DNA of 46,902 bases from Jimgerdemannia flammicorona (GCA_003990765.1 RBNJ01000050.1:1-46902), one strand, 5' to 3'; positions 6,509 to 46,902 are shown, counted from the stretch's first letter. Translations and numbers: made by a program. Notes: generated by a model not told the origin, from the letters alone.

Positions 6509-6518
6509 AGGAGGAAGT
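6509..6518 (+). promoter_or_regulatory. E1 polypurine tract
   Basis: AGGAGGAAG(T) directly before the 3' LTR; ATTCAGGAGGAAG also precedes the E2 and E3 3' LTRs. Confidence 0.85.
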
Positions 6519-6979
6519 TGTAATGGTATAGCCAGATTCAGAAGAAGGAAATAGGGAACAGACACTTGATCGCACCCAGTCCCAAAGTAGCCACATAGTT
6601 AGCAGTCCCTGATTTTGCCATTTGCTAAATATTTCACAAAGTACAAGATTGAGCTTCTTGATATAGTATAGCATTTCGCAACTGGCGAAATATTTCGCAA
6701 AGTATTAAATAACTCATAACTTAGCCATATAACCCAGTAACCATCTCATAGCTAGCAAACTTGTATAAATAACCCAGTATCTTCGAGTGAATAAACCTCA
6801 GATCGAAATAGTTCAAAGTAAAGAGATAGCAAAGGAACTAGTAAGCCTGTGAGCAGATACACTTCAAACTCACCCACCCTCCCCTGCAACTCAAAGGACT
6901 CTGAGGAGTCAGAGAAGATCAAGTTTTCAAGATACAGAAATCTGATGTACTTTCAAGAGTAAGCATCTGCTATATTATA
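6519..6979 (+). repeat. E1 3' LTR
   Basis: About 92% identical to 277-737 by eye, all differences transitions. Confidence 0.97.
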
Positions 6980-8106: not shown

Positions 8107-9706
8107 TATTACATAGTGGTCACTAAGTTCTTCAAATATATCAGATTCTCTCCAAGGTATATCTCTTAGACTAACTACAAGTTTGTTATAAGCAAGTTCT
8201 TATTGGAGTACCTTCTCAAGGTATTATAGTCCTCAAACTTCTTATCTTTAAACTATCTTATTATCTCTTAGATTGCTTGTGTAGAATTGAGGGTAAGTAA
8301 ACTGGAACTAACTTTATTTTAAAGGAAATAAGAGGAATATTTATACAAAATATAATTCAGTAGTTGCTAAGTTATAAAGCTAAATATAAATTCCAATAAC
8401 CAAATAAAATACTGGAACACAGAAAACTATAGTTGTAAGTATAAGTTTAAGTATATATATAAGTAGTTGTACAAGTTCAAGATACCAGTAGAATTTCAGT
8501 AATACAAGAAAAGGATACCAGAAGAATTTCTGAGTTATGTAAGATCAGAATGCCAGAAGAATAACAGTTACACAGAAAAAGGATGCTAGTAGAATTCAGT
8601 ATCATCAAGAACTTAGAGCAGAAAGTTCAGAACTATAGTAGCTTTATCTTCATTACTATCATCTAGACTAAAGGTCAGAGACAGGATATCTTCAAAGAAG
8701 ATGAGATCTATGAATATTTTGTCCATTTGTATATATTGCACATTTCATGTGCTTTATATATATTGTATAGGATGACATCATGACCAATGATGTCATCACA
8801 TTTAGCAGTAGTGGGGGCTCTCCAATCTATGACATTCTCTTCTATAAAATAAGGAACAAATGTGAGGTCTTGGGGAGGTCTAACCTGGATACTGGAGCCT
8901 TGGAATACTGAGATCAATCCTTGCAGGAATTGATCAGGATTGTTCTCAAGAATAGGGTTCCAGAACTCTTTTACCTCATCACTATTGAGGGTGATAGTAG
9001 ACTGGACTTTTGTGGCCACTATAGCCTTCAGTGCATTGGTGTAGTAGGCTGATAGTTTCTTGAAGTCTGAGGTTCTAATATACTCTAAGTTGGAGATTGA
9101 CCATGGTATATGTCTGAAGACCTGATGAATCTTTTTAGCTATCTTTATTTTACATATATCTATAGAGATGACATCTTGTATTTCTTAGTAACTGGCCTGA
9201 GAGAATTCCCAGCAGAGGAGGTTTCTTATTTCATACTTCTGCCATATCCAGAGGTATTCAGTAGTGATAGTGATCCTTATTTCCATTTTACAGCAGCAGA
9301 AGATATAATGATAAGGGTCACCAGTACCTAGGTTAAGACTAGGAGTTCTTTTTATGTGAGTTCTCAGGGCTCTTCTGATGTCTTGAAACATTCTTTCCTG
9401 GACTGAGAGGTCTTGGTGATTCCTGGACCTTGAGGTTTGGTGAGCAGCAGACATTTTGTATGTGGTAAGTCTTTTGAACTATTTTTGTGAGCTTTGTTTG
9501 GATTGCTGTGACTGCAGTTTCTTGATCCTTCTTTTATATTCCTCAAGATGTTGGTCTTGTAGTTACAATAACTCACAGTTGTTCATTATTGCTCATCTTG
9601 TAGCCTGGGTGAGTCATGCTATATGATCTTCTTGTGCTCCAATCTAGTGACTTGTAAGGAAAGGCTGTCTCCTATACTAATGTCATCATTTTGAATTACT
9701 GTTATA
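8107..9706 (-). repeat. E2 3' LTR (1600 bp)
   Basis: Colinear with 15208-16807 at an offset of about 7101; abuts the PPT. Confidence 0.95.
8613..9454 (-). pseudogene. LTR(U3)-encoded ORF of E2, 3' LTR copy (~280 aa consensus)
   Basis: Track ORFs 9185-9454 and 8708-9019 are one frame linked through a CAA>TAA stop. A 1-nt deletion near 8730 separates the acidic tail ending VLNFLL*. Confidence 0.8.
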
Positions 9707-15207: not shown

Positions 15208-16807
15208 TGTCACATAGTAGTCGCTGAGTCCTTCAAATATGTCAGATTCTCTCCAAGATATATTTCTTAGACTAACTACAAGTTTGTTATAAACAAGTTC
15301 TTATTAGAGTGCCTTCTTAAGGTCTTATAGTCCTCAAAATTCTTATCTTTAAACTGTCTTATTATCTCTTAGATTGCTTGCATAGAATTGAGAATAAGTA
15401 TACTGGAACTGACTTTATTTCAAAGAAAATAAGAGGGGTATTTATATAAAATATAATTCAATAGTTGCTAAGTTATAAAGCTAAATATAAATTCTAATAA
15501 CCAAATGAAATACTGAAATACAGAAAACTATAGTTGTAAGTATAAGTTCAAGTATCTGTTCAAGTAGTTACATAAGTTCAGGATGCCAGTAGAATTTTAG
15601 TAATATAGGAAAAGGATATCAGAAGAATTTCTGAGTTATATAAGATTAGAATGTCAGAAGAATAATAGTTATATATAAAAAGAATACTGGTAGAATTCAG
15701 TGTCACCAAGAACTTAGAGCAGAAAGTTCAGAACCACAGAGGCTTTATCTTCATCACTATCATCAAGGCTAGAGGTCAGAAACAGAATGTTTTTGAAGGA
15801 GATGAGGTCTGTAAATGTTTTGTCCATTTCACATATATTGTGTATTTTATATGCTTCATGCATGTCACATGGGATGACATCATCAGTGATGATATCATCA
15901 CATTCAGCAGTGGCAGAGGCTCTCTAATCTATGATATTCTTTTTACAAAATAAGGAACAAATGTGAGGTCTTAGGGAGGTCTAACCTGAATGCTGAAGCT
16001 TAGAATGCTGAGATTAATTCTTGCAGGAATTGATCAGAATTATCCTTAAAGATAGAGTTCCAGAACTCTCCTATCTTATCACTATTGAGGGTAATAGTAG
16101 ACTAGGCTTCTGTGGCCACCATAGCCTCCAGTGCATTAGTATGGTAGGCTGATAGTTCCTTGAAGTCTGAGGTTCTAGTGTACTCCAAGTTGGGGATCAA
16201 TCATGGTACATGTCTGAAGACCTGATGAATCTTCTTGGCTATTCTTATTTCATATACATCTATGGAAATAGAATCTTGTATTTCTTAGTGACTGGTCTGA
16301 GGGAATTTCCAGCAGAGGAGGTTTCCTATTTCATACTCCTACTATATCCAGAGACATTCAGTAGTGATAGTGATCTTTGTTTCTATTTCACAGCAGCAGA
16401 GGATATAATGATAATAGTTACCAGTATTCAGGATAAGGCTAGGAGTCCTTCTTGTATAGGTTCTCATAGCTCTTCTGATATCTTAGAATATCCTTTCCTG
16501 GACTGAGGGGCCTTGGTGATTCCTAAACCTTGAGATTTGGTGAGCAGTAGGCATTTTGTTTATGGTAAGTCTTTTGAACTATTTCTGTGAGCTTTTTTTG
16601 GATTGCTGCTACTATAGTTTCTTGATCCTTCTTTTATATTCCTTGAGATATCTGTCTTATAGTTACAATAACTCACAGTTGGTCATTATTACTTATCTTA
16701 TAGTCTGAGTGAGTCATGCTGTATGATCTTTTTATACACTGATCTGGTGGCTTGTAAGAAAAGGCTGTCTCTTGTACTAATGTCATCTTTCTGAGATCAC
16801 TATTACA
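15208..16807 (-). repeat. E2 5' LTR (1600 bp)
   Basis: On the element strand TGTAATA...TGTGACA; followed by the PBS. Confidence 0.95.
15714..16554 (-). pseudogene. LTR(U3)-encoded ORF of E2, 5' LTR copy
   Basis: Paralog of 8613-9454 with two 1-nt deletions near 15940-16000; intact acidic C-terminus DDSDEDKASVVLNFLL*. Confidence 0.8.
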
Positions 16808-21965: not shown

Positions 21966-22637
21966 ACAAGATGGCAGATTTCTTAAAAATGTCAGCTTTT
22001 TTCTTAAGCAGCAGATTACTTAAATGATAGCAAAGTTCTTTCTTGAACTTATGTAATAGTTTCTTTAGACTTATCTGGTAAGTAAACCAAAAATGGACTT
22101 GTTCTTTATATCAGAAAGTGGACTGGAGTGGAAATGGAAATAGCAAAGCTTACAATCTTCTAGCAGTAGCTGTAGAGGCTCTCTCAAAATATAGTAGGCA
22201 GGCTTGTCTTTTGCTTTGGATTCAAATTTTGGACTGAGGTTTATTCACTCTTGTCTTTAGGGTATTTTATACATTATGATTGCTATCTGGATATTATCTG
22301 GATAATTATAGATTTACCATCTCTGGTAATGTTTGGGTGTATCCCACAGGATATCTACAGGATATGAGTGTGTCTACAGGACATGAGTGTGTCCTCAGGA
22401 TATAGATAAACAACTCTGATTCAATATTCTGGCTAATTATAAGTGTGGTGGACATGAGTAACTATGCTATACTAGGAGTTTATATTACATCTCTCTCTAG
22501 TAACATTCAGGTTACACAATCTTTGACAATACTCATAATATAGTTTTTAGAGAAAAGAGACTAGCGACATAGTGACCAATAGGTATTCTGAGGTGTGTAC
22601 TAAGTAGGGTGGCCCTAGCATATTCAACTGGCAGCAT

Positions 22638-24553: not shown

Positions 24554-24599
24554 AGAATGTGCTTGATATTATACATTATTTCTTATGAACAGTACAACC

Positions 24600-27500
24600 A
24601 ATATTTTTTCTTTGAATATGAATAGGCTATGGTTTGTTTTGACATAAGAACATTTTTGCTTAGCTGAAGAGATTGGAAGCCAATCTCTTTCTTTTGCAGA
24701 ATGTCAGATGTGAGGATGATTTGGATAGACTGGAATGGACAAAGGAATGGGGAGGTGAGACAGTTTGGAAGGGCAAGGTTAGGATTCTAGTCTAGAGAGG
24801 CAGAGGGGAGATATGAGATATGAGGAGCCGAGAAGACAGGATAGTTTGGGGAGAGTGAATATGAACAGGACAGGAGCCAGTTACAGTGGGATCCTGTTAC
24901 TGTTCTACTATATAGAGTGAGCATGTGGATTGGGTGAAGGGTCTCCAAGAGAGTGGGGCCCTCACAGAGACTGGAGTTGATGTGCTCAGCAGGGACTTTA
25001 ATATAGTCAGAGATATACTGGTGGATAGAACTGATAGAGGGCAGGGGGCTGAGGGTAGGAGTGGAGGTCTGGAGATATAGGAGAAAGTAGAGAGGCTGAG
25101 TGTACTGATGGATACAGGCAGGAGATTCTGGAGTTATAGGAGGGTATACATATACTGGGCAAGTAGACTAGAGATAAGAATTGACTGAGTTTTGATGGCA
25201 AACTGCTGGGGCTTGGATGTTTGGAAGTCACTAGTAGTTAAATGGTATCTGTAGTCTGATCATTGGGGGTTACTGGGACAGGGACATTTAGGGAAGATTG
25301 GGGATGGACCTGGACATTGGCTCCTCAATTTCTCTTTGTTGGACAATAAGGTACTGTAGAATAAGTAGGCTGAGGACATTTGGCAGAGGGTGAAGGGTTG
25401 AATACAGGAAGGTGCTCTGGTTGGTATCAGGTAGATGAGGTTGAAAGAGGCTGCTAGAGTCTATTGAGGTGAGGCTGATAAGGTGGCTGGAAGATAGAGG
25501 AGGAGGAGAGTGATGTGGGCTTCTGCTAGACTGGCTAGGCTTCTGGAAGATTGGGCTGGTCTGTTGGCCCTGGAAGGAGTGGAGGACTGGAGATTGCTGC
25601 AGACAAAAAAGAAGATTAGAGAGCTATAACAGGTATTGTGGAAGGAGGAAGAGGTATGGGTACAGAGTTTGACAATATGGTTATATTGGCAGGAGGAGAG
25701 AGGCCCTCTAAGTTTCTCATGAGGGCCCTTTGGGTGAGGAGAGTTAAGCAGTGGTGGGAGGGAGTACTGGATGATAATGATCTACTGGTACACAGTATAC
25801 AAGATATTCTTAGATTGTTGAAGGAGAGGTGGAGTGGTTTGTAGAGTGAGGAGGAGGATGGGACTGGTACTGCTACTATTGACCATACTTTGGAGGATTA
25901 GCACCCACCAAAAGTGGAAGGACTGAGCAGTCTGATGATGTCAGTTCAGGAGGAGGAGATTCACTAGGTTCATGCCATGACTATACTGAGTATGGCATCA
26001 GGGGAGGATGGTCTGTCCTGGGATTTTTGGACGAAGATGGTAAGAGTCCCCAAAGTGCTGAGAGAGCTGATAGTACTTTGTGACTTGGTACTATAGTTAA
26101 GGAGATGGATGGGTGAGCAGAATCTGGGGCTAGTGATACTGCTTTATAAGGACAAAGGCAGGAGAGAGAACTGGAAGTACTGACAGCTGATTATGCTATT
26201 AGATATGAATAGAAAGCTGGTTACTAAGGTGGTGGTGGCAAGGCTGCAGAAGGTGGCCCAGTAGGTCTTAGAGAAGGAACAGTGGGGCTTTGTATGAAGC
26301 TGACTCATTAGAGATGATACAGCTTGAGTGCATGGCATTATTGAGGGAGCATGAGCCTGTGGACTGGATGGTACCTAGTTTTTCTGGATCAGGAGAAGAT
26401 ATATGACTATGTTCAGTGGGTCTGGTTGGTGAAGATATTAGATAGGATTGGCATCTCTCAGCAGTTCTAAGTAGCAATGGTCATTCTACTGGAAGAGAGT
26501 AGAGCTGTACTCATGTATAATGGGAATCAAAGGGTGGCTTTCTCTCTGAGTAGGGGTGTTCCTCAGGGGGACCCACTATCTCTCATTCTGTATACTCTTT
26601 TATTGAAGTCCTTGATAGTTAGGATCTGGTGGAAGATAGTAGGGCTTTCAGTATTTAGTATTGAGTGGAAAGTTGGAGCCTTTGCAGATGATATTGTAGT
26701 TGGTCTGAGATCAATTGCTGATGTTGAGGAACTCAAGGCAACAGTGGAGTGGTATGAGGTGCATTCTGGGGCTAAACTCAATTGGCACAAGTATGAGATA
26801 ATAGTGTTAGACAATGGCCTGATAAGAGGGGATGTTATTAGAATAATTGTCTCTACTAGGGAGATGGTGAGGTACTTAGATATCTACCTTTTAGTATATG
26901 GATCAGTATTGCTGAGAACTTGGTGGGTATAGTGAGTTGCAATATAGAGGGAGGCTCTGTAGAGTTGGAGTGATCACCATCTGTCTCTGGTGGGGTGTGT
27001 GTCTAATTTAAATATCTACTGGCTTCTGAAGCTATAATATTTGGCTTATCATCTGGACTTCCCAGCCTGGGTAGTGAAGAGATTGTTGAAACTGGCCAAA
27101 GGATAGATCTGGGCTGAGAGAAGGAGTCAGAATAGCTGGAAAATCTTATCTTTACTAGTGGCTAGAGGGGGTCTTGGACTGGTTGACTTTCCAAAGAGAT
27201 TGCACTGCCTGAGGGCATAGTGACTGAAGAGAGCAGTAGAGCTGAGAGGTGGTAGCTAGGTTCTCTTGATGAAGAAGATCTGAGAGATGAGGTCCTTATT
27301 GAGAGGCTCTATAGGTGATCTACTCTCCTTAATTGGACTTCAGAATAATAGATACATGTAATATAAAGGCTTCTAGTAGAGAGTAGCAGATAGGGTACAC
27401 CACATTAGAATTCCCTAGCAGGGAGATGAAGGAGAGTTGTCTTAGGGCCTAGCAATGTAGAGATAGGACCATATATTATTGAGGGGCATTCTCTTAAACA

Positions 27501-28226
27501 ACTTCAATATTAGTAATGGAGTCAAATATCAGAGGGGGTTAGGACAGGATCTGTGGCCCAGTGGATAGCAGCTGATAGGTATCAGAGAAGAGTGAGACTG
27601 GAATGGGGTCTAGGCCTAGAGTGCTGATATTAGGTAGTAATTGCCACTGAAGTATTGAGTGGTCTAGTAGTATATATTATAGAGGAATATCATGCTTAAT
27701 TTTCACTCAGACCATCTTGTTGTAGGGAGAAGCTTTGACTGTAAGGAGTACTATAATGTAGGATAAGAAGGGGGTTTTGTACAGATATCAGAACATTGGC
27801 TAGGAGAGTGCAAGGTGCTTGGCAACTTCTGAATAGTAGTTGGAAATTAATTGAGAGTTGTATATAGGGAGGATAGTGTGAGAGGTTGGTGGGAGAATTT
27901 GCAGAATAGATTGGTAGGGGGGTTGAAAAGGAGAGGCTTACTTTAGGTTAAATATTAGCTATATAGGTAGAGTTGGCAGGTTACTGGTTGTTTGTTTTTA
28001 AGAATGAGAGGTATCTAGACTTAGAGGTGTAGTTGCTGAGATGGAAAGGGTTGATGGAGGATACCTTGACAGGCTAGTAGCTTGGTTGGAGTCTGCAGGG
28101 TGGTCTGCAGTATCATTTGTAGAGAAAATCTGTAGGCAGAGTGGAGAGAGAGTTGTGGTAGTGAGTGATAAGGTGGTTTTCAAGTATAAAGATATAGGGG
28201 GGAGCTCCTCTAGGGAGATTGGGTAG
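24600..28226 (+). pseudogene. LINE-1 ORF2: AP endonuclease, reverse transcriptase, Cys motif
   Basis: IFSLNMN..LFLLQ, (G)DFNI, SDHWG, SGEDGL, GVPQGDPLS, AFADDI, RGGLGL, QISEHWLGEC. Confidence 0.9.
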
Positions 28227-29569: not shown

Positions 29570-32500
29570 TTCTTACTTGCCATCACTCTCTGCTGAAGTA
29601 CAACTCAACTACTCACTATCTGAACCCTCTTACCACTCTTCTTGCAAATATAATTCACCAGATTCTGATGGCCACCCCCACCTAGACCTCATCCTCTCTA
29701 CCAACCATTCAAAATGTCAAGTAATAACTATTCCCAACATGCTATCCTAGCTCCAAATGCCACCCACTGGCCCTTCTCAAAGATATGAAGTCAATGACTG
29801 GCCATCTCTACTCAAATTGTCAGGGCCCATCTTAAGGTCAACCATTCATCTCCCACTCTATCCACTAACCTTCACCAGAGGTCTCCCCATCTCCCTTCTT
29901 CCCCTTCCATCAGAGGCCTCAATCCCAATCTACTAGAAATACTGTGCCAAAACTCTCCCAAAACTTCACACTCTTCTAGCCAATGTTTAGGTGTTTGTAC
30001 CACTCCTCCCTCCTGACCAATGTCTATATATTCCTCACACTCAAATGTACTGTCCACCACCAAGTACCTAGACTGATAGTTCAGCATCACATTCTGTCTC
30101 AAGAACCTCTATCAGATCACTCAGAACTTAGGGGGAAGCTATTGTCTCACCTACTTACTTCAAGGCCAAATACCATTCCAGTCCTACTCCTTACCAATTC
30201 CCACTCTCTGCCATGCTTCAGGCCACATGTCCCCCCCAAGCCCCCAGCTGAAAGTCCTCCACCAATGTACCTTCCAGCAGTAGTCAGTTCTATCTCCACA
30301 TCTATGATCCCCAGTCCTCCACCCCCTCATCACTCCTCTACTGAAGTCCAATCCTTCTTACACTATTCACTACTCCCCATCAAAAACCTTTATAATATAT
30401 CCTCCTGCTCTCATCCATGGCCACTATTATAAGCAGATCACCAGTTGCTCCACAAGGGGAATACTGGACTTCCCACACCCTCTGCATAAGTGGCACCCAT
30501 TCTCAGCCTCACAACTCACTCACTCTCTTCAGCCACCATGCTTGCAGACAATATAAGAGCTTAGCAAAGTCCACTAAGCCCAACTCACCCCTGTCAACAG
30601 GTAAATTCAGAACCTTCCAGCCTATCTGACTTTACTGCCCAGCCCAAATCTATGATCTTGCTATCTTTAGAAGTCACCTGACCACCTACACCAAGAAGTC
30701 TAGATGATACCCTACATACTATAGCTTTGGCATCTAATACACATTCAGTATCATCACTCTTTCTACCAAGGATATATGCTGACCACCCCATCTCAAGAGA
30801 ACATTCCCACATATTAGTAGCTGCTGTTCCCACCATACACATGGCAGAAGGGACCCATATACTGAAAAGTATATTCCCAAGTACCATATCAGTTCTTCTG
30901 CTAGAACTACTGTCCCAATCATATTGTCATCAACTATTCTGCTGTCTAGCACCAGAGTCTCACATTTGTATCAGTTGAGTCAAGCACCAGAGCCTCTCTC
31001 ATACCACTTCACAGTTCACCTTAATTCTTTTATATCTACTAACCACCATATCATCTACAAAAGCCCCAACCTTCCAGTTAATCTCTAAAATGTCCAAACC
31101 TCCAATTTGATGCTAAATCCTATCCAATAAGGGCTCTAAAAAAAGGGCATATAGAATGGGTGACAAGGGATCCCCTTGTAGCACTCCATGATCTAGCAAA
31201 AAAGTTACACCTCTGTATTCATTCATCACTAATACTGCTTGACTGTCCTCCAATAAACTGATTAATGACTACCTGAATGCTGGGGGAACCCCCACACATT
31301 TCAGTACTCTCTCCAGCCAGATCCTCCTCACCCTGTCATATGCCTTCTCTTGATCTAGAAATACTAACCAGCCATCTACCCCAGCTGTCTGAGCCCCCTC
31401 TATCACCCCATAAATCCAAACAGTACTATCTCAGATCAACTGACCACCAACAAATCCCCTCTGCTCTACTTCTAGCATCTGCTGAGCAATCTCCTACAGC
31501 CTAGTCACTAAGATCTTTGTCACCAGCTTGCAGTCCATGTCAAGGAGCATGATCAGCCACCAGTTCCTCCAATCTTCCCTTCTCTCCTTATCCTTATAGA
31601 GCAAGGAGACCAGCCCTAGGCACTGGCCCCCAATCCAAGTTCCAGACTGAAGGACCTCACCACTTATCACTATTATCTCCTCCAATACTACCTCTACTCC
31701 AGCCATCTTATTCCAAAAATCCCCGAGAAGCCCATCCTCTCCTGAAGCTATCCTATTGCTTGTTGAAGCCAAGACCTTGCATACTTCCTCCCTCTGCACC
31801 AGATCTCTCAGTGTCCCTAGACCCAGTGCTGGGTCTGAATACCAATCCTCCAACTGCTGTTCAATGTTCAGAGCATCCTCACCCCCTTCTTCTTCACTCT
31901 ATAAATTCTCCCAGTGAGTCCTCAGCAATCTCAGAATCTTAGAAGTCCCTGCCATCATCTCTCCATCCTCATCCAAAATACCATTCTACTGCTGTCTAGT
32001 TCTCTGAGCTTGGAGCAACCATGAAAGAAACCTAGTAGACCTCTCTCCCTCCTCCAACCCCTGCCACTGCAACCTTGCCACCATTCCCTTCGGCTGAACT
32101 TCTTTCTCCATTTATAGCACTTCCTTTAACTCATCTACTTTCTTTTGTATCTGCAGAGTTCACCAATCAGCCACCCCCCAATCCTCTAGTGATCCCACAC
32201 ACCTTCCCAAAAGTGCCACCAATCTCTGTGAAGCCTATTTCACTTGCTGCTACTACTGAGCACTCTTTCCTTTCCTGGCCTCTCTTTAGTACCTCTGAGC
32301 ACTCAACTTCAGCTACTGCCAGTGATCCCCAATCTTCAATCCCTGCTCTCACTATCTATTAATCTTCTCAATAGCTTCCACCTCCTAGTCTGTCTATAAG
32401 GAACCATCTTCTAACAAAGAAGAATTCAGTTACCAATGCCCAGACCCATCCTCACTTCTCTCAAATCTTCCACACCCTATCAGACCCCAGTGATCTGACC

Positions 32501-33150
32501 ATGGACACCAAACCACCTCCAGCATATCCCAGACATCTTCTCCCCAGTACTCTGCTATCAATACTCAGTCAATTCTAGAGTCCAGCCCTGTCACCCAGTG
32601 GGTATAAATTCGGCAATCCTCCCAAAACTATCACCTCAAGTCAATCAAGGAGCTCAACCTCTCAATCTCTATCCAATCATTCAACTCTCTACTTCTATCT
32701 CTCATTCCTCTCCTGCCATCAGTTTTGTCTATTCCATTATTATATACTATGTTGAAATCTCCCCTCAGGCAATCAATCCCTATCTCACCCATAACACTAG
32801 TCTCTCTCAGATCTCTGACCCAATCCATGTATTCCCCCCTCTCTGCCAGGCAATAATATGACCCAACAGTCAAAGAGTTCCACCCAGATCTCTTCTATAC
32901 TCCCCACACCAATCTACTCTCCCAATGTCCAATGTCCCCAATATCTCTCATCTCCTTTTGAACCAGAATGCTCACTTGCCCAGTCTACACAGCTGCCCCA
33001 CCCCATTCTCTAGTCCAGTCCAGTAAGTCTCTGTCTACCTCATACTGTATATCCTGCAGTAAGAAGAGATCTGCATCCAGTCCCCTCAGCCAGCCAAAGA
33101 TATTCCTTTGCTGTACTGCTCCCCTCAACCCATTCACATTCAAAGAAAAG
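29570..33150 (-). pseudogene. LINE-2 ORF2: APE and RT
   Basis: TFSLNVNGLRG..DADLFLLQD, RGDFNI, PWSDHWG, ASGEDGL, GVLQGDPLSPILY, AFVDDM, FECEE..QTPKHWLEEC. Confidence 0.92.
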
Positions 33151-33243
33151 GTTCTAGTTATACTTTTTATATTGAAAAATGTTTGATATTGAGAGCCCAG
33201 TCTAGAATTTCATACTCATCTCATCCCCAGTCAGATCTAAATA

Positions 33244-35052
33244 TCACTCTGCCTCCAAAACATCCTCTGCTACAGTCTGAGTATCCAGTGCTTCCAAGAT
33301 TTCCTGACACTCCACCCCATCCACAACCTCTATTTCTGCCTGATAATCTGTATATACCACTCTCCACTTCTCCAACCTCTTTCTTGAGCCCCACAAGTAT
33401 GCCACCCAGTCATTCACAATCCCCTGAAGGACCTCCTCTCTCTTATCATTAACTTGATATTTCTCTAACTCCAAGAGCACCATCAGAATTTCATTCCTAA
33501 TCTTCCTTGGCACTTCTTCTCCATGAAGAATTTTCTCTCAATGCCAATCACTTAGTACCTGGAAGTCCTCTCCTCCAAGCTCCTCAGCTACCACCCCCTC
33601 CAGAGTCTTCCACAGTCACTTCTCTTCATTCACCACCTCAGCAACACCCTGGGCAACTCCCTCAACTTCCACCACAGGGTCCACTAAAATACTTCTCCTT
33701 CCTGACTCATCTCACTCCTCTTCCAGTATATCCAATAGTTCCTCCTCCCCCTCTGTCCTACTTAGGACACCATACTGAGGGTGAACTTCCTCTCTCATTT
33801 TAGCATCCTCCACTATACTGCCTAGTCCTTCCTTGCTTGATCCATCCAGTGCTCTCTAGCTCAGGTACTCTCCCTCAGTCCAGTACTACCTTCTCCCACC
33901 CCATCATTGGCCACCCCCTCTTCTATCTTCACCAACAACTTCTTCTGGATTCGCCTCCCCTGCATCTTCTCTCAGGTCCCCTTGTCTATCCTGATCCTTT
34001 TTCCATCTACAATCTCCACCACTGTCTTGGCCTCATACTCCTTCCAAGCCAGTCTTCTCCTCTCAAACACTCCTACCAGATCCTCCAGAGCCTCCAGCAA
34101 GTCCTCCTCTTTCTCTGGCATCTCTTTCACCCATGAGACCTTGTACTCAACTGGTCCTACTTAAGAGTAGCAGACTAGTCTCTCATCTTCCCCATGTTCT
34201 CTCTTCCAGCCAGCCTCACCCTGATATCAACATCTTCTGTCCTGAGTTCAGTACCCTCCCAGACTCAGAATTCAATATCTATGATCTCCCTAACCACCTC
34301 CATGATCAGCTCTCTGGCCCTCTCTTTTGACACTATAGAAAGATCCAATACTGTCAACTACACTACTTGAGGGTTCCAGCATATACACCTGGTCATAGAA
34401 ACCACCACTCTATCCACCACTACCCTCTTCTCTACAGTCTCCAATAATGATGCCTCTTTCTCAAATCCAATCTCAACCCCTTCTTTCCCCTTCAAGAACT
34501 TCACTGAAGCCACCTCCTTCACCTCCTATACCATCAACTCCAAAATCATACTCACAGTCACCACCAAGCCTTGGAAGCACAAAGTGATGGCAAATTCTGA
34601 CCTTGACTTTTTGAGTAACAGAGCTGACACCATACCAGTCACACCATCTGCCAGGTCCCCAGACCTCATGCTCTCCCCCTGCCCTAATCTGCCAACAACT
34701 ATTACATCTGGATTTTTTTCCAGATTCTCTTTTTTTTTTTTTTTTTTTTTTTTATAGTCTCTTGGACTTCTTTTTCCAGATTCCCAGTTACAGCTCCATC
34801 AGCAGTCACATCTCCAGCCCCTACTCTCCCCTCCCCCCTACTGCCCAGCCCTCCTATAGGGGCCCCTCCCTATCTCTTAACTGCAGCTGTTGATGCCTTT
34901 TCTAGTTCCAACCAGTTGTCCAGACCAGATGCTATTCTCTCCATCTTGACCTTATTAGCAAAGGTCATTCTTCTCCCTCCCTGTTGCCTCAATTCACCTC
35001 TCTCTCTACCACTAATGCCACAATCACCCACAGAAGGTTCTGGCATCCCCAA
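33244..35052 (-). pseudogene. LINE-2 ORF1 (decayed, interrupted by a micro-insertion)
   Basis: Homologous to LINE-1 ORF1 (TFANKVK..IASGLDNWL versus SFTDMIK..LTSGLESWL). Confidence 0.7.
34730..34770 (-). mobile_element. Micro LINE insertion (17 nt plus A24)
   Basis: Reverse complement GAAGTCCAAGAGACTAT(A)24 equals the LINE terminal motif; exact 13-bp TSD TTTTTCCAGATTC at 34715-34727 and 34771-34783. Confidence 0.92.
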
Positions 35053-35364
35053 ACCATCTCCTCATCTCCTCCCAAAATGCTGCCAGTCAAAAGTACCACT
35101 GTCCCCCTGGCTGACATGCTCACCAGTACAGTTATTGCTGTCTATATTGATAGTCTCCTTTCACCAAAAATGTTGCAGAAAGTGTTATCTGAGTCTTGTG
35201 TCACCTGAATGTTACCAGTAAAAGGTACTGAAACTATATTTTCTATAGTAATACTTATACTAGTTATAATGAAAACTATTTCTACTATTATCAGAATATT
35301 TATAATTAGTATATCTGTATTACTAGACTGATTTCAGCTCATTGTAAAGTTTTCTTATAGTATA

Positions 35365-36860
35365 TATTAGGATAACAACTCAATATATCAATATATAATT
35401 ACACCATTTTATTAGATTTATATTATTCATTAGTAACATATAAATATATGACTTCAAAAACTTCAAAAATAGCTCTCTCTCTTTTTACAATAAAGATTAT
35501 GAGTTCTGCTAGTACTAAGTGACTATAGTAAATTAATATATCTCTTTGAAATATACTATACTAAAATGTCAGATGACTAGTCTAGTAATATAAGTATAGA
35601 AATAGATATACCAATTATGAAAATTCTTTAGATATAACTACAATAACTATAGATATGAAAAACACAGTTCTGGATGTAGGTATAAATATAGCCAAGAGGT
35701 CTATTCTGATCTTTGACAGGAAAGATTATATAATCTAGGTATTCTATAAGATGAATCTCCTTAATAAATATAGCTTAGCAGAGTATATGAGACCACCAGT
35801 GTTGATTTAAGATTACAATGCTACAAATGACTGTCAAGTATTATATGAGATTATATTCATATTATCAAACTTCTAAATGAAGCTTATAATATATATAATA
35901 AATATTTATGAGATATGGGAGACTTTATATAATCATTTCATGTAAATATCTATGTCAAATTAATTTCATCTAAATCTCAATTATTTAATCTATAAATAAA
36001 GCTAAAGAAGACTATTTGCAAATATGCTAGTTGTATCAATGATCTGATAAATCAGGTGAATTTCCTAAGTATGTCAGCATAGTATATAAGTAATAAAGAT
36101 AAGGTCTTAGCACTTATAAGAAACTTTTCTGAAGCATATTATATCATAGTAGCAACTATGCAGAAAAGTGACAAGCTCACTAATTATGCTCATATCATCA
36201 TAAGTCTCATAAATGAGGAAATATATCAAAGAAATAGTACTATTAATAATGATGAAAATACCTTCTATGGGACCTATGAATGTAGTAACAGTACTAAATA
36301 AGATCAAAAGTGTAGACAATAATAAGGTCAATAAACTCAAACCCAAGCTTAATAATATTATAACAACTAATTCAGTCAATCAACTGAGTATGATAGTTAT
36401 TGTGAATACTGTAACAAGTATAGATATAGGAAGTATAATTATTATTATTAAGAAAATAACAAGAAGAGTAGTAAAAATAATAAGCAATAATATAAAGACC
36501 AGTGTAGGTAATATAGAGGTAGCAGAAAGATCTATCAAGGTAAAGAAAAGCATAATAATACAAATACTACCAAAACTGATAAAAGCAGTAGTATATTCTT
36601 TATATAAGTATTATATATTGATCACAGTTCCACTCTCAAATCCACTAACTCATCATCTATATCAATAAATTCCAGTCAATAGCAAAAAACTTTTCACTTG
36701 ACAAAAAGTAGTAATGATGTAAGCACTATTAGTAATAAATATGCTATAAATATAGCTAAAGATAATGATGTCTGGCAAATGGATTCCAAAGTTATATAAT
36801 ATATAACACCACATTGAGAATAGTTTTCTATATATGAACATTTTAAATACTTTGTATCTA
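35365..36860 (+). mobile_element. Copia-C: LTR, PBS, gag, start of protease (truncated)
   Basis: LTR start TATTAGGATAACAACTC (as at 41304); PBS-like GATTATGAGTTCTGC at 35495-35509; gag paralogous to 41400-42700; protease VWQMDSK. Confidence 0.8.
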
Positions 36861-38944: not shown

Positions 38945-40394
38945 TGTAAAGGTGACCCCAGAATGATGACATCAGCATAGGAGACAGTCTTTCCTTACAA
39001 GTCACCAGATCAGAGCACAAGAAGATTATACAGCATATGAGATAAGTGATAATGACCAACTGTGAGTCATTACAACCATAGTTCAGATATCTTGAGGAAT
39101 ATAAAAGAAGGATCAAGAAACCACAGTAGTAGCAACCAATAAGACCCACCAATCCCAAAATAGCTCAAAGACTTACCATAAACAAAATGCCTGCTACTTG
39201 CCAAACCTTAAGGTCAAGAAATCACCAAGGTATCTCAGTTGAAGAGAGGATGTTCTAAGACATCAGAAGAGCTATGAGGACCTGCTCAAGAAGGACTCTG
39301 AGTATCAACCTGGGTACCAGTGACCCTTATCACTATATCCTCTACTACTATGAAATGGAAACAAGGATCACCATTGCTACTGAATGCCTCCAAATGTGGC
39401 AGAAGTACAAAATAGAAAACCTCCTCTGCTAGGAGTTCTCACAGACCAGCCCTCAAGAGCTATAAGATGCCACTTCCATAGATATATACAAAACAAGAAC
39501 AGCTAAGAAGATCTATCATATCTTTATGTATGCACCATGGTCAATTCCCAACTTGGAGTATGTTAGAGTCTCAGATTTTAGAGACCTATCATCCTACTGT
39601 ATCAATACACTAGAAGCCAGGGTGGCTACAGAAGTCCAGTCCACTATCACCCTCAATAGTGATGAAGTAGAAGACTTCTGGCATCCTATCCTTCAGGACA
39701 ACCTAGAGCAATTCCTGTAAGGATTGATCTCAGTATTCTAAGGCCCAAGCATCCAGATTAGACCTCCCTAAGATCCCACATTTATTCCCTATTTTGTGGA
39801 AGAGAACCTCATAGACTGGAGAGCTCCAGACCTCCTTCCCACTGTTGAATGTGATATATATAAGATGCATGACCTATATGATGACAACAATGATGACAAT
39901 GAATTCATAGACCTCATCTCCTTTGAAGACATCCTGACCTCTGATGATGAAGCCCCCATGGTCCTGAACATTCTGCTCTAAGTCTCTTGGTTATACTGAA
40001 TAATGCCAGCACTGGTATTCTGATGTGACACCAAATTATACCATCATCCTGAATCTATACAACCATCAGTGTCAACCCTGGAACTTAACAGTTTTTTCTG
40101 TCCCGACATTTTATTTTAGTTATTGGAATTTATATTTAGCTTTATATCTTAGCAACTATTGAATTATATTTTATATAAATACCCCTCTTATTTCCTCTGA
40201 AATAAAGTCAGTTCTTCTCAGTATAATATATACACTTCCTTGCAAACAATCTAAGAGATAACAAGATAGTTCAAAAGATAAGAAGTTTGAGGACTATAAG
40301 ACTTTGGGAAGGCACTCCAATAAGAACTTACTTATAACAAACTTGAGTTAATCTAAGAGATATACCTTGAGGACTTAGTGACTACTATGTGACA
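38945..40394 (+). repeat. E3 3' LTR (1450 bp)
   Basis: Homologous to the E2 LTRs; TATATAAATA near 40172 and AATAAA near 40201. Confidence 0.92.
39187..39981 (+). pseudogene. LTR(U3)-encoded ORF of E3 (264 aa, no indels)
   Basis: One frame MPATCQTLRSRNHQ...PMVLNILL*; the internal stops are TAA/TAG at positions where E2 has Q or W. Confidence 0.85.
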
Positions 40395-40405
40395 ATAATA
40401 ATAAT

Positions 40406-41303
40406 TATTAAAATTTCTATTATTTTGATATCTTTTTAATATGATTTATATATATATAACTATATTATTTTTGAGTTACATTATTTGATATATAAAATAT
40501 ACTATCTGAAATAATAAACAATACTTTACTCTCTATCTCTTTCTCTAGATCTACTCTATATTTATAACAAAAGTTATGAGCCCTGCTTAGTAGCTAATAA
40601 GAAATATCTCTTTAAGACTCTATATCAAGATATCAATATAGACAAACTAAGGGATCAGTATCAGTATAAGTATACTGAACACAGTAGGTACAAATACTCT
40701 CAGAATTAGTATAATAGTCACAGTTTTTATGGTAAATATAAATATAGCCAAGAGGTTAATTCTTATCTTTAATAGCAAGGATGATGCTATTTGGATATTC
40801 TATATGAAAAATCTTCTGAAAGAATGTAGTTTGGCAGAGTATACAAAACTACAGATACAGATTCAAGATTATAATATTATAAATAATTACTAAGTATTAT
40901 AAGAGATTATGTTCATATTATCAAACTAGCCAATGAAGCTCATAATATATACTATAATAGTTTATAATATATGAAAAACTCTATATAATTATCATATATA
41001 AGTATCCTTATCAAATTGATTCTATCTGAAATCTCAGCTATTTTATCTATAAATAAAACTCAAGAAGAGTATCTATAAATATACCAATTATATAGATAAT
41101 CTGATAAATCAGATAATTTCTCTAAGCATATCAGCAGAGACATCAGTGATGAAGACAAGATTCTGGTCCTTATATAAGACCTTTCTGAGGTATATAATAT
41201 TATTATAGTAGCTATATATAAGAGTGAGAAACTTATAGACTATATTTATATAATAATAAGTCTTATCAATAAAGAGATATATCAAGAAAATAGTGGTAAT
41301 AAT
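40406..41303 (+). mobile_element. Copia-D: LTR, half-tRNA-iMet PBS, gag (truncated by Copia-E)
   Basis: LTR at about 40406-40569 ends TTTATAACA; PBS AGTTATGAGCCCTGC at 40572-40586; gag paralogous to Copia-C and Copia-E. Confidence 0.8.
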
Positions 41304-43286
41304 TATTAAGATAGCAACTCAATATATCAGTATATAACCTTATACCATACTATCTAATTTATATCATTCATCATTAAAGCATAAAATATACTAATACTAG
41401 AAATGTGTAATAATCAGCCTAGCAATATGAGTATAGAAACAGATATACTAATTACAAGCATTTTTCTCACAGGTATATCCTCAATAAGTATGGGAAACAT
41501 AGTTCTGATTGTTGGTATAAATATAGCCAAGAGGTCCATTATGATCTTTGATGGAAAGAATTATGCTATTTGGGTATTTTATATAATGAATCTCTTTGAT
41601 GAATATAGCTTGGCAGAGTATATGAAGCCATAAGCACTAATTCAAGATTATGATACTATAAATAATTACTGAGCATTATATGAGATTGTATTCATATTGT
41701 CAAATTCTCAAACAAAGCTCATAATATATATTACAATAACTTATAAGGTATGGGAAGTTCTATGTAATTATTATATGCAAGCATCTATATTGAATTGATT
41801 CCACTTGAAATCTCAGCTATTTAATCTTCAAATGAAGTCTAAGAAGAGTATCCATGAATATATCAGTCATGTTAACAATCTGATAAATCAAGTAAATTCT
41901 CTTAGCATATCTACAGATTGTATTAGAAATGAAAACAAGGTTATAGTACTTATAAGAAGACTTTGGGATATATATAATGTTATAGTAGCAGCTATGTATA
42001 AGAGCAGTAGACTCTCAGATTACATCCATGTGATAATAAGCCTCATAAATGAGAAAATATACTAAGAAAATAGTGCTGATAATAATAAAAACACCTTCTA
42101 TAGGTTTCATGGATGTAGTACCAAATAAGGTCAAAAGTGTAAGCAATAAAACCAAAGGGAATAAATCCAAACCCAAGTACAATAATGCAATAATCAGTCT
42201 ACCAATTAATCAAACAAGTGTGATAGTTACTATGAATACTGTAGCAAGTATGGATATAGGAAGTACTACTATTATTATTGAGAAAATAACAAGAAGAGTA
42301 GTGAGAATAAGTATGGTAAAAGTCAGCACAGAAACTATCAAGACAAATGGAAGTATGGTAATATAAATACTATTGAAACTGATGAAAGAGGTAATCTATT
42401 TTTTATACAAGCTATCAGTAATACCAGTTCTGCCAGTACAAGATCTACTACCAAATCCACTAATCTGTTATCTATGAATTCTAGTCAATAGCAAAAGTAA
42501 AATACTTTTCATCCAATAAAAAGTAGTAATAACATCAGTATACTCAGAAGTATGGGAATTGCCAACAACTATATATTCTCCAAGTATATATCTGATAAAT
42601 ATATTACCAATATAGTCAATAATAATAATATCTGGCTAATAAATTCTGGAGTCATATAATATATAATACTATACAGGGAATAGTTCTCTATATATGAGCC
42701 TTTTGAATACTCTATATCTATCAAATTAGGAGATAATAATATTATCTATATTCAAGAAAAAGAAAATATAGAGATATATCTCTAGGATAATATTATAGAA
42801 TCTACTGGCACATTTCAAGATATACTATATACTCTAGAGTTCAGCAAGATTATCTTTTTAATAAGAAAGATAATATCTCATAGTAATAAATAAATACAGT
42901 ATTGAGATACTTACTGACCTATAGGTGTAATAGAGCAATATCTTCAAATACTAGTATATGTTAATATATAGAGCACAGCTTTCATTCTTCTTAAGGAGAT
43001 TGCCAACTATCTCTCTTTCTTAATAATATATAATAAAGAAATATATATATATATAAAGAATACTATAATATATGATTTGTATGATAATGAGCTAATAATA
43101 GCTTCAAAATGTGAGAATATTTATATGATCAATAGCATATCAAATAGAAATGGTATGAAAGTCTCCACTTATACAATAACTATATCTGATACATCTAATA
43201 TATAGCATCAATGCTTAGGACATATCAGTAGAATGAGCCTTGAACATATAATAAGAAGTAGCTCAGTAAGTAGATTACTAATATAT
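41304..43286 (+). mobile_element. Copia-E: partial LTR, gag, protease, pre-integrase
   Basis: IFDGKNYAIW (copia gag N-terminus), LKSQLFNLQM, WLINSGV protease, (W)HQCLGHIS at about 43203-43230. Confidence 0.82.
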
Positions 43287-43459
43287 TGTGGCATTGGTTA
43301 TGTATAATGAACTTTGACTGCATGGCTCAATGTGTGCTACTTGGTGAAGCGCGCGATGTATAACTGAATGTGTTTGCGATGGTTACGGGTCGATGGTCAT
43401 GTGACAGGTCGTTCGATTCGTGTGATAATAATAATAGCGGGAGATTGTTCGACGATGGT

Positions 43460-44010
43460 GGGCTCAGGATGTCGGTGATGAGGTCATTTGGTTGTTCAAT
43501 GGCTCAGGACGTCAATGATGAGGTCGTTCAGTTGTTCAATGGCTCAGGACGTCGATGGCTCAATTGTTTAGTGGAAAAGGGCGGCGATTATGCTGGCTAA
43601 GTTTCCTGGTGGCGATTAACTTGGTGGCAAACTCAGCGATGACGGTTTTGGCTTTAAGCGGTTTGTGGCGCAGTAGGTTGGGAAAAATGGAGGTTGACAG
43701 CTCACTCGTCCATCTTGTTTAGCTTGAAAGGGCGGGGTAACTTGGGTCTTTGGCGGTCATTTGAGTATCTCAGCGGATCTTAGGCTGTGGTCTTGTTTGG
43801 CTGGGTATCCTTGGGTTCCTTGGTTTTCTGGGTCTTGAATCTCGAATGGCGGTCGAATGCGCAGAGGTCTGAATGGCAGTCTGAATGCACGGAGGTCCGA
43901 ATGCGCGGCAGTCATGTCTTGAATCCTTGGCTGGGTAACTTGGGTTTCTGGGTCTTGAATCCTTGGCTGGGTAACTTGAGTTCCTTGGGTTCTTTAATCC
44001 TTGGCTGGGT
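43460..44010. repeat. Short tandem and direct repeats in E4 U5
   Basis: GTTGTTCAATGGCTCAGGACGTC x2-3, CTGGGTAACTTGGG..CTGGGTCTTGAATCCTTGG x2-3, GAATGGCGGTCGAATGCGC-type x2-3. Confidence 0.8.
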
Positions 44011-44340
44011 CTCGGGTCTCAAATGGCAGTCGAATGGTGGTGGTCGGGTAACGTTTTCTTTCCGTGGCAAGAGAAAATTCTTTAACTCAAACTTCTGAGC
44101 GATCCATTGCTCTAGGTTGTTATCTTGTTCTCAGAATTTATCTGGTCTCTTGGAGGCAGTGGTTATTTCTCAAAACCAATTGACTGAGGTTTATTCACTC
44201 TAAGAATATGGGTTATTTATACAAGTTTGCTAGCTATGGGGGAGGGGGTGCGACTAAGGCTAAGGTATACTATGTTGTGGCGAACTTATGCTATTGGTTT
44301 GCACGATGCAAGGTGCAGGCTATTGTTTACTATGGATTGG

Positions 44341-44540
44341 GTTGTAGGGGATAGCAACACTGGATTCGGACCTGCTGACAAAATGCTGAAAACAGTGGTA
44401 CTGGGTAGCAATGCTGGAAACAGATGAACTGACATGATACAATGATTGTTGCCAGAAACGGTTGTGGAGGGTGGCAACGCTGAATTCGGACCTGCTGACA
44501 AAATGCTGAAAACTGTGGTACTAGGTAGCAATGCTGGAAA
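44341..44540. repeat. 80-bp direct repeat with 120-bp period in E4 U3
   Basis: 44341-44420 matches 44461-44540 (ATTCGGACCTGCTGACAAAATGCTGAAAAC.GTGGTACT.GGTAGCAATGCTGGAAA). Confidence 0.9.
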
Positions 44541-44587
44541 TGGACTTGCTGACAAAAGCTGGGTTCTCACGGCTGATGGGCGGTACT

Positions 44588-45574
44588 CTAGAGGAAATAG
44601 TACCCTTCATCTATAGCGGGCAAATCTTGCTGGGTTGTGATTTCTTCTTCATCATATCTCTCCTCAAAGGGGGGGAGCACCAGCCAAGAGGTGAGGGGGT
44701 AGAAAAGTGGCCAGTCATCTTCAACAACATTCTCCAACCCTTGAACAGCTTGAATGTGAACAGAGGACTGGTAGACTCTCTGTTGCTCCTCTTCTTCTTC
44801 TGAAGGCTCATCAGTTTCAGTGTCAGAGGGGGTTTCTTCAGGGGCAGGGTCTTGGAGTTCTTGGGCCTCCTCTTCAAAGACAGGAACTTCTTGGGCTTCT
44901 TCTTGATTTGGTTCCCAAATGATGAGGTGTGAATTGTGGCTGACAGGGTGGTGGGTGGTTGGGGTAGTTCCCACAGGTGCCTCTATAGTGATGGGCAGTC
45001 CTTCAAATATCTCCATAAGACTCATTAGGTGACCTTGATGGTTGTCTCGGAGTGGGGTGGTGTGGAAACCTGGCTGAGTAGGTTCGGTTTGTTGGTTTCC
45101 TATGGTGATGCAGTTGCTGCCAATAGCATTGGCTACTTCAGATTCTATCCAGTCAGCATCTTCAGTTGAAAGGTGGGAGAGGCTGCCAGCTGTTACTCCT
45201 TGTAAGTGTACTATAGTCTAGGGAATATGGCAGAAGATTTGATGGACACGGAGGGCTCTCTTGATTAGCTGGCTGGTGGTTAACATTTCGGCAATGAGGT
45301 CTTCCTGGTCGCCTTCTTGAGTCTCATTGCGAAGGCGGTGTCTGATTTCATAGTCATGCCAGAGAGTCATTCGTTCGGTAGTGTCTTTGAGCTGTTGGGT
45401 CATTATATACCAGTAGTTGATAAAGTGTCCAAGGTCCTCAGTGTAGAAGTTCAAGTGTTCGGAGGTATCTGGGCACCAGATAGCCTTCTTGATAGCTTCA
45501 AAGATCAGGGTCTTTGGGCCAGGCAAAGGGGTAGAGCGGTGGGAGGTCTGGTTGGTTCAGCAAATGGGAGGCAT
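44588..45574 (-). pseudogene. LTR(U3)-encoded ORF of E4 (328 codons, two transition stops)
   Basis: MPPIC(R)TNQ... Track ORFs 45218-45526 and 44588-45025 are the same frame. Homologous to the E2/E3 LTR ORF, with a long acidic tail. Confidence 0.85.
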
Positions 45575-46098
45575 TGTGTAGTGGGTACTTGGTTCTTTGG
45601 TGCTGATCCTTGAGGCGGAGTATGGTTCCTTAAATAACATGGTCTTCATTTTGGCTCGGATCATCTTGTCTTCTTTTGGGATGATCACCTAATGGGTCAG
45701 ACTGTCTATTTGATTGTCATGCCATTATATCTTAGCAGTCACCGGTACTCTATTGTCAATTGTGTACGTCACATCTGCTCCTTGCAAAATTAGAGCCGTC
45801 CTCAGCAGTGAGGGTTACACAGAGTTGGGTGGTCTTAACTCCAGGGACGAGCGGAATGCTGGCGCATTTATGAGGACTGGCCATCCTTGTCTAGGGCGAG
45901 GGCTCCCATAGTCGCAGCAGGGGGTTTGAACCCATCGGAAATAGTATTACTTGTAATCCAAGGCAATTTCTTAGTAATAATGTCTGTCATGTGGATGGGC
46001 TTGAGTCTGGTTCCAACATTGTTGGCTTTCTTGAGTTCTGAGTGAAACATCCGTCATATCTCCAGCGGAGACGACACAGACAGAGTGAACAGGATTGT

Positions 46099-46830
46099 TC
46101 AAATGCATTTTGCTTCTCTTGAGTAGTAGAGTCTTATGTGGTTGTGATGTATCTTGGTCTTGAGTATAACTCCATCCAAGGTCTTGAGTTGATAAGTGTG
46201 GTTCGAGAATACTTGGTGTATGAGATAGGGGCCTTCCCATTTTGGTTCAAGCTTGGCACTCCAATTTCCTTCTATGATAGTACGGTACACCAGAACCTTT
46301 TGTCCAATGAGCAGGGGTTTGAGGTCAGCTTTGCAGTCATAGTACTTCTTTTGATGTTCTTGTACCTTGGCGATAAATCCTCGTGCTTGCTGGCATATGT
46401 CGTGTAACTGGGTGATCTCTTCTGTGACTCATTTGACAGATCTAGCTGGACTGGTTCAGTAGGATCTTGTGCTTCTCAGCCATACACCAAATAGAAGGGG
46501 GTCTGTTGGGTAGCAGTTGCCTTAGAGGTACGGATGCTGAACAGAATTGCCAGTAGATAGATATACCAGTTTAGTTGATCTCTGGTTCTACTGAGACCTC
46601 GCTTGATGGTCTGGTTCATTCATTCAGTGAGTCCATTTGCCTGTGGGTGGTAGGCTGTTATTGGTCGTAGCTTGATCTTGAAGTTGCTTGCAAAGGTCTT
46701 CATGGCTTGGTTGACAAATTCTCGACCTTGGTCTGTAATGATTTCCTTGGGCACACCATGGCGGCTGAAAATTTCATCATACAGGATCCCAATAATTGTC
46801 TGGGCATTGGCAGTCTCGATGGCAAAGGCT
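46099..46830 (-). pseudogene. E4 integrase (C-terminal part)
   Basis: EIFSRHGVPKEIITDQGREF, TAYHPQANGLTE, TPFYLVYG, KLEPKWEGPY; ends HHNHIRLYYSREAKCI*. Confidence 0.92.
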
Positions 46831-46902
46831 TCAGATAGGGGGTGGGATCATTGTAATTATATGGGATAGATGGGTTTAATAAAGGAAGGGAGTCCACGCG
46901 AA

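Follow-up and report, generated by a model that had tools for sequence, protein, structure and literature searches.

A decayed 328-codon frame beside Ty3/gypsy integrase remains, probably a copy of a lineage-specific accessory gene

In the window analysed here, the whole stretch of 46,902 nucleotides, LTR retrotransposons of a eukaryote are nested, and close to its end, in an element designated E4, lies a frame of 328 codons with a terminal TAG and two internal stops (45574..44588, minus strand). Is this frame the remains of a gene that is shared with other elements of the nest, and if so, where does the gene lie with respect to the LTR, how might it be expressed, and what kind of protein does it encode? 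We lean, with some reserve, towards the explanation that a lineage-specific accessory gene of a Ty3/gypsy group survives here as a decayed copy, and this leaning extends to the explanation as a whole, including the layout of E4, an mRNA of the gene's own and an adaptor role of the protein.

A Pfam search of the 144 stop-to-stop frames of the window identified pieces of Ty3/gypsy protease, dUTPase, RT, RNase H and integrase, together with copia gag fragments. E1, on the plus strand, has two LTRs of 463 bp each (276-738 and 6518-6980, 92% identical), both without the accessory gene. In E2, on the minus strand, the gene is present in both repeats, which are 85% identical over 1596 nt: the 3' LTR (8111..9706) carries it from 9454 to about 8613, interrupted by one stop (codon 90 of the ORF) and, near 8711, by a frameshift, and the 5' LTR (15212..16807), followed by the PBS-like TTGGTGCCCATTGG, carries a second, more decayed copy (about 16555-15714). 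The 3' LTR of E2 is preceded by a polypurine tract (PPT), the PBS-like sequence after its 5' LTR is identical to that of E1, and its flanks show a possible 5-bp duplication, ACTAT. E3 is truncated at its 5' side; its gene copy (39187..39975, plus strand), which has several stops, lies inside the 3' LTR (about 38945 to about 40411). E4 is cut by the end of the window inside the integrase, the remains of which are spread over three frames on the minus strand (46847..46102; rve core 46847-46623, C-terminal part to 46102), and the 328-codon frame follows about 0.5 kb downstream of them; its 5' LTR would lie beyond base 46902. At least E1 and E2 of this Ty3/gypsy group encode dUTPase. The PPT and PBS of E1 recur in E2, and its TATA/AATAAA block, 55 nt long, recurs in E4; the LTRs of E1, E2 and E4 look modular, suggesting either gain and loss of the gene-bearing part or recombination between lineages.

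Homology, decay and relatives of the E4 frame

With the frame translated through (P0001, X at both stops), tblastn against the window matched the LTR of E3 (39187-39768, plus strand, E 2e-11, 26% identity over 201 aa), the 3' LTR of E2 (9391-8873, minus strand, E 2e-9) and the 5' LTR of E2 (16248-15973, minus strand, E 3e-3), and BLASTP of P0001 against P0009 gave an E value of 4e-11. Another tblastn match, in E1 (6131-6376, E 2.2), was taken as chance. The Smith-Waterman scores of the E4 frame were 148 against E2 and 168 against E3, compared with a mean of 34 for shuffled sequences (sd 5, z 24-25); in both comparisons all 1000 shuffles stayed below the observed score, so the alignment withstood the shuffling that the initial annotation had named as a possible refutation. 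The remaining five frames of the E2 LTR score 27-42, i.e., one of the six frames matches, and blastn of E4 against the E2 3' regions returned no match at E <= 1e-3, in line with the annotated dissimilarity of the E4 LTR in other respects. Since the match is confined to a single frame of the protein and has no counterpart in the DNA, the likeness of E4 and E2 is real, frame-specific and situated at the protein level. As far as sequence comparison goes, the E4 frame is confirmed as a diverged homologue of the LTR-borne ORF of E2/E3, as had been proposed from four short peptide matches, all of which were recovered (MPATCQT in E3; MFQDIRRAL, TTEYLWIWQKYEIRNLL and IAKKIHQVFRHIPWSISNL in the 3' LTR copy of E2). 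Its position is also that of the E2/E3 gene, in sense orientation, 3' of the integrase and upstream of a TATA/AATAAA block. Set side by side, the E4 integrase and those of E1-E3 share 38-42% identity, and for the accessory protein the figure is 26-33%.

The frame is nearly intact, as had been noted, with exactly two internal stops, a TGA at codon 6 (45559-45557) and a TAG at codon 119 (45220-45218). It consists of a helical core (about codons 15-195) and an acidic, aromatic-rich tail (codons 196-328), and the 133 residues of this tail, with a net charge of -32 and 9% F/W/Y, bear out its earlier description as rich in D/E with aromatic residues. In the alignment, the position of the codon-6 stop is Arg in the intact relatives and Cys in P0008, and the position of the codon-119 stop is Trp in all five relatives spanning that site; these residues agree with the changes that had been proposed, CGA>TGA and TGG>TAG, and either stop could have arisen by a C>T or G>A transition. 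With its two stops, the copy in the window is a pseudogene. Between positions 43300-46902 of the window and metagenome contigs (runs X1, X2, X5 and X7), the differences are almost all transitions, and A/T in the window where the contigs have G/C is commoner than the reverse (from window to contig, run X1 shows 53 A>G and 42 T>C versus 26 C>T and 27 G>A). This excess of A/T suggests that the window copy decayed through C-to-T changes, and the two E4 stops are changes of the same kind. The gene is covered by metagenome contig pieces that are 85-99% alike (four sequencing runs assembled), and one contig of 792 nt spans 44619-45410 with 33 differences from the window. Near-identical pieces occur in 10 sequencing runs, each with at most 0.20 of the words, and the labels of these runs are mostly soil metagenome, with none listed as RNA.

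Open relatives of the frame were identified for more than one type. A word-indexed search for the E4 type (2 matches among 672 candidates, a cluster of 6) gave P0002 (325 aa, 76% identical to the window frame), P0004 (324 aa) and P0008 (331 aa) as well as fragments, and the search for the E2 type (3 matches among 390 candidates) gave P0010 (271 aa), P0011 and P0012. A profile built from the E4 and E2 types detected 12 proteins at E <= 1e-3 among 1.84 billion representatives (6 at E <= 1e-10 and 4 at E <= 1e-30; 2 of the 12 were already in the seed alignment). A third subfamily comprises P0013 (342 aa), P0014 and P0023 (291 aa, from the metagenome locus L001), and P0017, P0020, P0021 and P0022 are more distant members of the family. 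The scan of metagenome contigs yielded one related locus, of 1535 nt, out of 119 pattern matches, and among the 64 pattern matches in the scan of viral contigs none was related to the accessory gene. The intact E4 and E2 types (P0002 versus P0010) are 33% identical over 206 aa (E 4e-22), the protein of L001 is about 30-36% identical to those of E2/E3, and the subfamilies, of which there are at least three, are mutually 26-36% identical; full-length members of all three share the same MP(P/A) start. All members that were looked up come from JGI/IMG or ENA metagenomes, on short contigs, and none from NCBI or UniRef. The resemblance to an expanded domain in arbuscular mycorrhizal fungi, which the initial annotation had suggested, found no support in these searches: the profile matched those 12 proteins only, the members looked up are all metagenomic, and no named protein was linked to them. 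Judged by these searches, the accessory family is an orphan.

That frames of 271-342 codons have stayed open while identity fell to 26-36% speaks well for selection at the protein level, and for the family as a whole the full-length open relatives in three subfamilies uphold the purifying selection that had been proposed; because protein databases list open frames only, the share of dead copies is not given by them. Among the decayed copies of the window, omega (Nei-Gojobori) was 0.31 in frame and 0.80 and 0.89 off frame for the E2 3' LTR versus E3, and 0.56 in frame and 0.43 and 0.92 off frame for the two LTRs of E2 as a neutral control; these noisy values give a hint of selection. Very probably, then, the sequences represent a real and conserved accessory gene family of gypsy elements. 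The E4 copy is the third and most diverged witness of an old, selected gene.

Could the likeness reside in conserved non-coding DNA of the LTR, or be due to chance, rather than to a protein? U3 regions do carry conserved regulatory DNA, but E4 and E2 match significantly in a single protein frame despite the lack of similarity in their LTR DNA, and frames of the length given above have been kept open over low identities (26-36%), which reduces this reading to a next to negligible probability. A host gene captured by one element through transduction, with no role for the element, is another way in which a gene could have entered E4, and LTR elements are known to capture genes (PMC7264820). Here, however, the gene occupies the same place in the same orientation in at least two element types with integrases 38-42% identical, and gene and integrase show similar divergence; moreover, no cellular homologue was detected among the 1.84 billion representatives, and the members looked up are all metagenomic ORFs on short contigs. 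We consider transduction very improbable and retain the reading of the E4 frame as a copy of an accessory gene of the elements themselves.

Position of the gene and its possible expression

In the E2/E3 type the gene lies wholly inside the LTR, beginning about 250 nt after the LTR start (252 nt in E2) and ending about 260 nt before the TATAAATA/AATAAA block. Being upstream of this block, the gene is located in U3, and being inside the LTR, it is present in two copies per full element. The signals TATAAAAG (9540-9533), TATAAATA (about 8349) and AATAAA (about 8316) can be read in the sequence of the E2 3' LTR on the minus strand. TATAAATA, followed about 25 nt on by AATAAA, stands downstream of the gene in both E2 and E4, and the short LTR of E1 displays the same order and has no other candidate promoter there. 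In E4, the TATA/AATAAA block with TATAAATA (44184..44238, minus strand) is situated about 350 nt downstream of the gene stop and is 88-93% identical to the blocks in the two E1 LTRs (505-564 and 6747-6801). Since it matches the block of an LTR that is free of the gene, it represents the ordinary promoter region of the element, and we presume that it provides the genomic promoter and the poly(A) signal of E4. E1 transposed with its 463-bp LTR without the gene, so the gene is not needed in cis.

The extent of the E4 LTR is judged from several signals around the gene. A candidate PPT (45785-45774) followed by TGTGACG from 45773 (together 45773..45785, minus strand; a by-eye match in a single copy) resembles the junctions between PPT and TGTGATGG/TGTAATGG of E1 and E2, and would set the start of the E4 3' LTR at about 45773, 199 nt upstream of the ATG. 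The PPT follows the end of the integrase at about 370-400 nt in E2 and E1, and the candidate PPT of E4 does so at about 315 nt. A unit of about 81 nt occurs in two copies (44340..44540, minus strand), 90% identical and 120 nt apart, in the stretch that separates the gene from the TATA block. Other E4-related sequence covers 43301..44183 on the minus strand, with tandem arrays at 43461-43557 and 43843-44010; it is a possible R/U5, with a candidate LTR end ...TTATACA at 43301. A 48-nt block upstream (45857..45903, minus strand) is 79% identical to positions 10-57 of L001, and in E4 as in L001 some 300 nt separate it from the gene downstream; with 0 Rfam matches in 43000-46902 and 0 tRNAs in a scan of the window, it was left unmatched. 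Loose contig ends at 45860 and 46038 were considered as LTR borders and rejected, as they reflect local divergence or variant spacers. With an LTR beginning near 45773, E4 would have the same layout as E2/E3, and, with the candidate PPT and its distance from the integrase in favour, it is fairly probable that the E4 gene copy lies inside the LTR. Against this placement, an LTR from 45773 to 43301 would measure 2.5 kb and its R/U5 about 0.9 kb, far longer than in E1/E2, and a short LTR like that of E1 would leave the gene outside.

The gene may also possess a promoter of its own, for which we see a chance not far below even. Upstream of the ATG, TATAAAAG is found at -86 in E3 and in both LTRs of E2, and at -82 in L001, which belongs to the third subfamily. 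A leader of about 21 nt beside the ATG matches at 25/27 to 27/29 positions when L001 is compared with E2/E3; beyond this leader no further DNA similarity was found between them. The leaders are free of any upstream ATG, and their base at -3 is A. In E4, a TATA-like TATTTAAG (45629..45636, minus strand) stands at -62 from the ATG, and its leader is partly similar, again without ATG and with A at -3; this TATA is weaker than the others and spaced differently, which argues against a separate promoter in E4. According to the proposed mechanism, a short mRNA would start inside the LTR at its own TATA box, cover the gene and end at the poly(A) signal of the LTR, and because the message would end at the LTR's own signal, either LTR could express the gene. 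A comparison of sequencing depth, in which the gene and the TATA block had a greater summed depth than the integrase, was set aside because depth cannot rank the parts of an element. A run presumed to be RNA, which covers parts of the gene without the integrase, was likewise set aside, as its kind is a guess and missing coverage proves nothing.

Both the placement and the message can be read differently. The LTR of E4 might start only after the gene, as a short, E1-like repeat around the TATA/AATAAA block, and the gene would then be internal: in the 463-bp LTR of E1 the shared block stands at an offset of about 230, the same geometry puts the start of the E4 LTR at about 44470, below the gene stop, and LTR elements often carry extra ORFs at such a place (PMC7264820; PMC10309623). 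However, the sequence between the E4 gene stop and the TATA block holds no purine-rich tract, a start at about 44470 falls inside one of the 81-nt repeats, a PPT-like tract with TGTGACG, like the E1/E2 junctions, is instead present 199 nt upstream of the ATG, and the E2/E3 type, which is homologous, demonstrably carries its gene within the LTR, so that we regard a short E4 LTR as somewhat unlikely. As for the message, the position of the gene near the 3' end of the genomic RNA would suit a spliced subgenomic mRNA, and the protein might then handle RNA, as a Rev-like or CERV-like export factor (PMC10309623), which is the chief rival with regard to function. Such expression appears quite unlikely to us, as no splice signals were identified, the TATA box and the ATG-proximal leader are conserved across subfamilies, and the protein has neither a basic region of RNA-binding type nor, in the searches described below, any likeness of sequence or fold to known proteins.

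If the placement inside the LTR and a separate mRNA are taken together for the whole group, a broader scheme can be put forward tentatively. In a Ty3/gypsy clade of a soil eukaryote, probably a fungus, the LTR would have turned into a self-contained gene, with a U3 that holds a promoter and a conserved ORF of 270-340 codons for an acidic adaptor, followed by the promoter and poly(A) signal of the element; both LTRs, and even solo LTRs, would be able to express it, and the arrangement would be an independently arisen counterpart of the accessory genes in U3 of complex retroviruses. Provided that this layout and a separate promoter are borne out, a protein of the element could potentially be expressed from any LTR of the family, whether solo or not, which would change the annotation of such LTRs and the judgement of their effect on the host.

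Features of the encoded protein

An AlphaFold model computed from 9 sequences was poor (pLDDT 42.6), and a model from 14 sequences is usable for the N-domain only, with a pLDDT of 70-91 for residues of about 15-160, which are all helical and include a helix of 38 residues, and below 50 for most of the rest. The N-terminal domain is thus predicted to be all-helical and to comprise about 150-195 residues. The tail, disordered in the model, has 80-150 residues with a net charge of -16 to -32 and 8-11% F/W/Y. The N-terminal part has a pI of 5.4-6.6 and is not basic, hence direct binding of nucleic acid is not indicated. Hydrophobic segments are lacking in the 6 members tested (maximum Kyte-Doolittle mean over 19 residues 0.55-1.15). 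An env-like ORF was considered and rejected, because signal peptide and transmembrane anchor are absent and the protein is acidic and largely disordered.

Searches for known families and folds gave no match at the thresholds used. Pfam assigned 0 families to P0001 and none that was shared by more than one of the 14 members, a sequence profile search of the PDB gave 0 matches at E <= 10, and Foldseek retrieved nothing from PDB or BFVD at E <= 1e-3. In the VIA wide search, which is independent of Foldseek and covered 48,161 chains, nothing stood out (best Z 3.5); the ESM Atlas contained no usable match for P0002, and the best for P0013 was 0.88, below the lead level of 0.9. The predicted fold of the accessory protein was recognised in none of the libraries searched, which does not by itself show it to be new.

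The tail contains a short motif, [DN]LIxF[ESK], in 6/6 tails of the E2 type and the third type and in 0/3 tails of the E4 type; it is also absent in P0020 and P0022 (2 of the 11 sequences scanned). The motif resembles clathrin-box or SUMO-interaction motifs, and we claim no function from it. A folded domain joined to an acidic-aromatic tail is the architecture of acidic transcriptional activators, and the location of the gene at the 3' side, in U3, brings to mind regulatory genes of complex retroviruses. By analogy, the protein could be a regulatory adaptor, the helical domain of which would bind a partner from the element or the host, and the acidic-aromatic tail of which would attract host machinery much as acidic activation domains do, although we hold such an activator or adaptor role to be doubtful.

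Known systems and other sequences in the window

To our knowledge, almost none of the extra genes in LTR retrotransposons has a known role, and the cases of LTR-encoded proteins that we know of are those of vertebrate retroviruses. Genes located in U3 of the 3' LTR of these viruses, or overlapping it, are sag of MMTV, nef of primate lentiviruses and the tas/bet region of foamy viruses; of their products, Sag belongs to the type II membrane proteins, and Nef carries a myristoyl group. The accessory gene described here resembles sag, nef and tas/bet in that its frame lies in U3, upstream of the genomic promoter, and in being accessory, i.e., not needed for the core chemistry of replication. No likeness in sequence to these viral proteins was seen, the PDB searches by sequence and by fold being empty, and the protein described here contains no hydrophobic segment and starts with MP-, not MG-. 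In the full-text literature, searched by phrases and therefore with some risk of missing reports, no conserved protein gene contained entirely within the LTR of such a retrotransposon came to light. The family belongs to the known class of retrotransposon accessory genes, among which its location within the LTR makes it notable. As soil metagenomes are the one source from which it is known to date, it points to a host lineage that has been sampled poorly.

Among Ty3/gypsy elements, CERV of Cer1 is an accessory ORF with a shown role (PMC10309623). The present gene is like the extra ORFs of the CERV type in being in sense orientation, specific to a family, located 3' of the integrase and without homologues outside the element lineage, and in having a function that is not evident from the sequence. 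It differs from them by lying inside the LTR (as seen in E2/E3), by being duplicated in each element and by having its own TATA box upstream; no likeness of sequence or fold to CERV or to env-like proteins was found, and the accessory protein is without a membrane segment. The rice elements Retrosat2, RIRE3 and RIRE8 have LTRs of over 3 kb and an orphan ORF0, which is internal and upstream of gag-pol (PMC3485330). ORF0 is comparable in that it, too, is an additional orphan frame of Ty3/gypsy elements whose LTRs are unusually long, and in its divergence, which is faster than that of pol, whereas its internal position upstream of gag-pol and its occurrence in plants set it apart, and no homology was detected. 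For fungal gypsy elements, another paper reports one family of Postia placenta with dUTPase between protease and RT, and a figure legend in it mentions an 'add. ORF', with no LTR position given there (PMC2864245). E1 and E2 resemble that family in having dUTPase between protease and RT (2925-3320, plus strand, and 12793-13329, minus strand; Pfam E 6e-26 and 1e-22). A third, dUTPase-like fragment, 31% identical, is located at 18304-18684 on the minus strand.

Several other sequences were observed in the window. The GC skew of two blocks, 22001-28000 and 30001-36000, is extreme, with opposite signs (+0.39 to +0.48 in one, -0.37 to -0.53 in the other); they contain many open frames, with no Pfam match save an RVT_1 piece (26471-26929), and look like another unusual repeat in an inverted arrangement. 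A repeat of 300-400 nt is present in three copies, 72-76% identical (35648-36082, 40704-41139 and 41483-41918), and beside it are gag fragments of the copia type (36083-36298 and 41799-42062), so that a copia-like element appears to be interleaved with E3. The window begins with a run of 43 A (positions 1-43).
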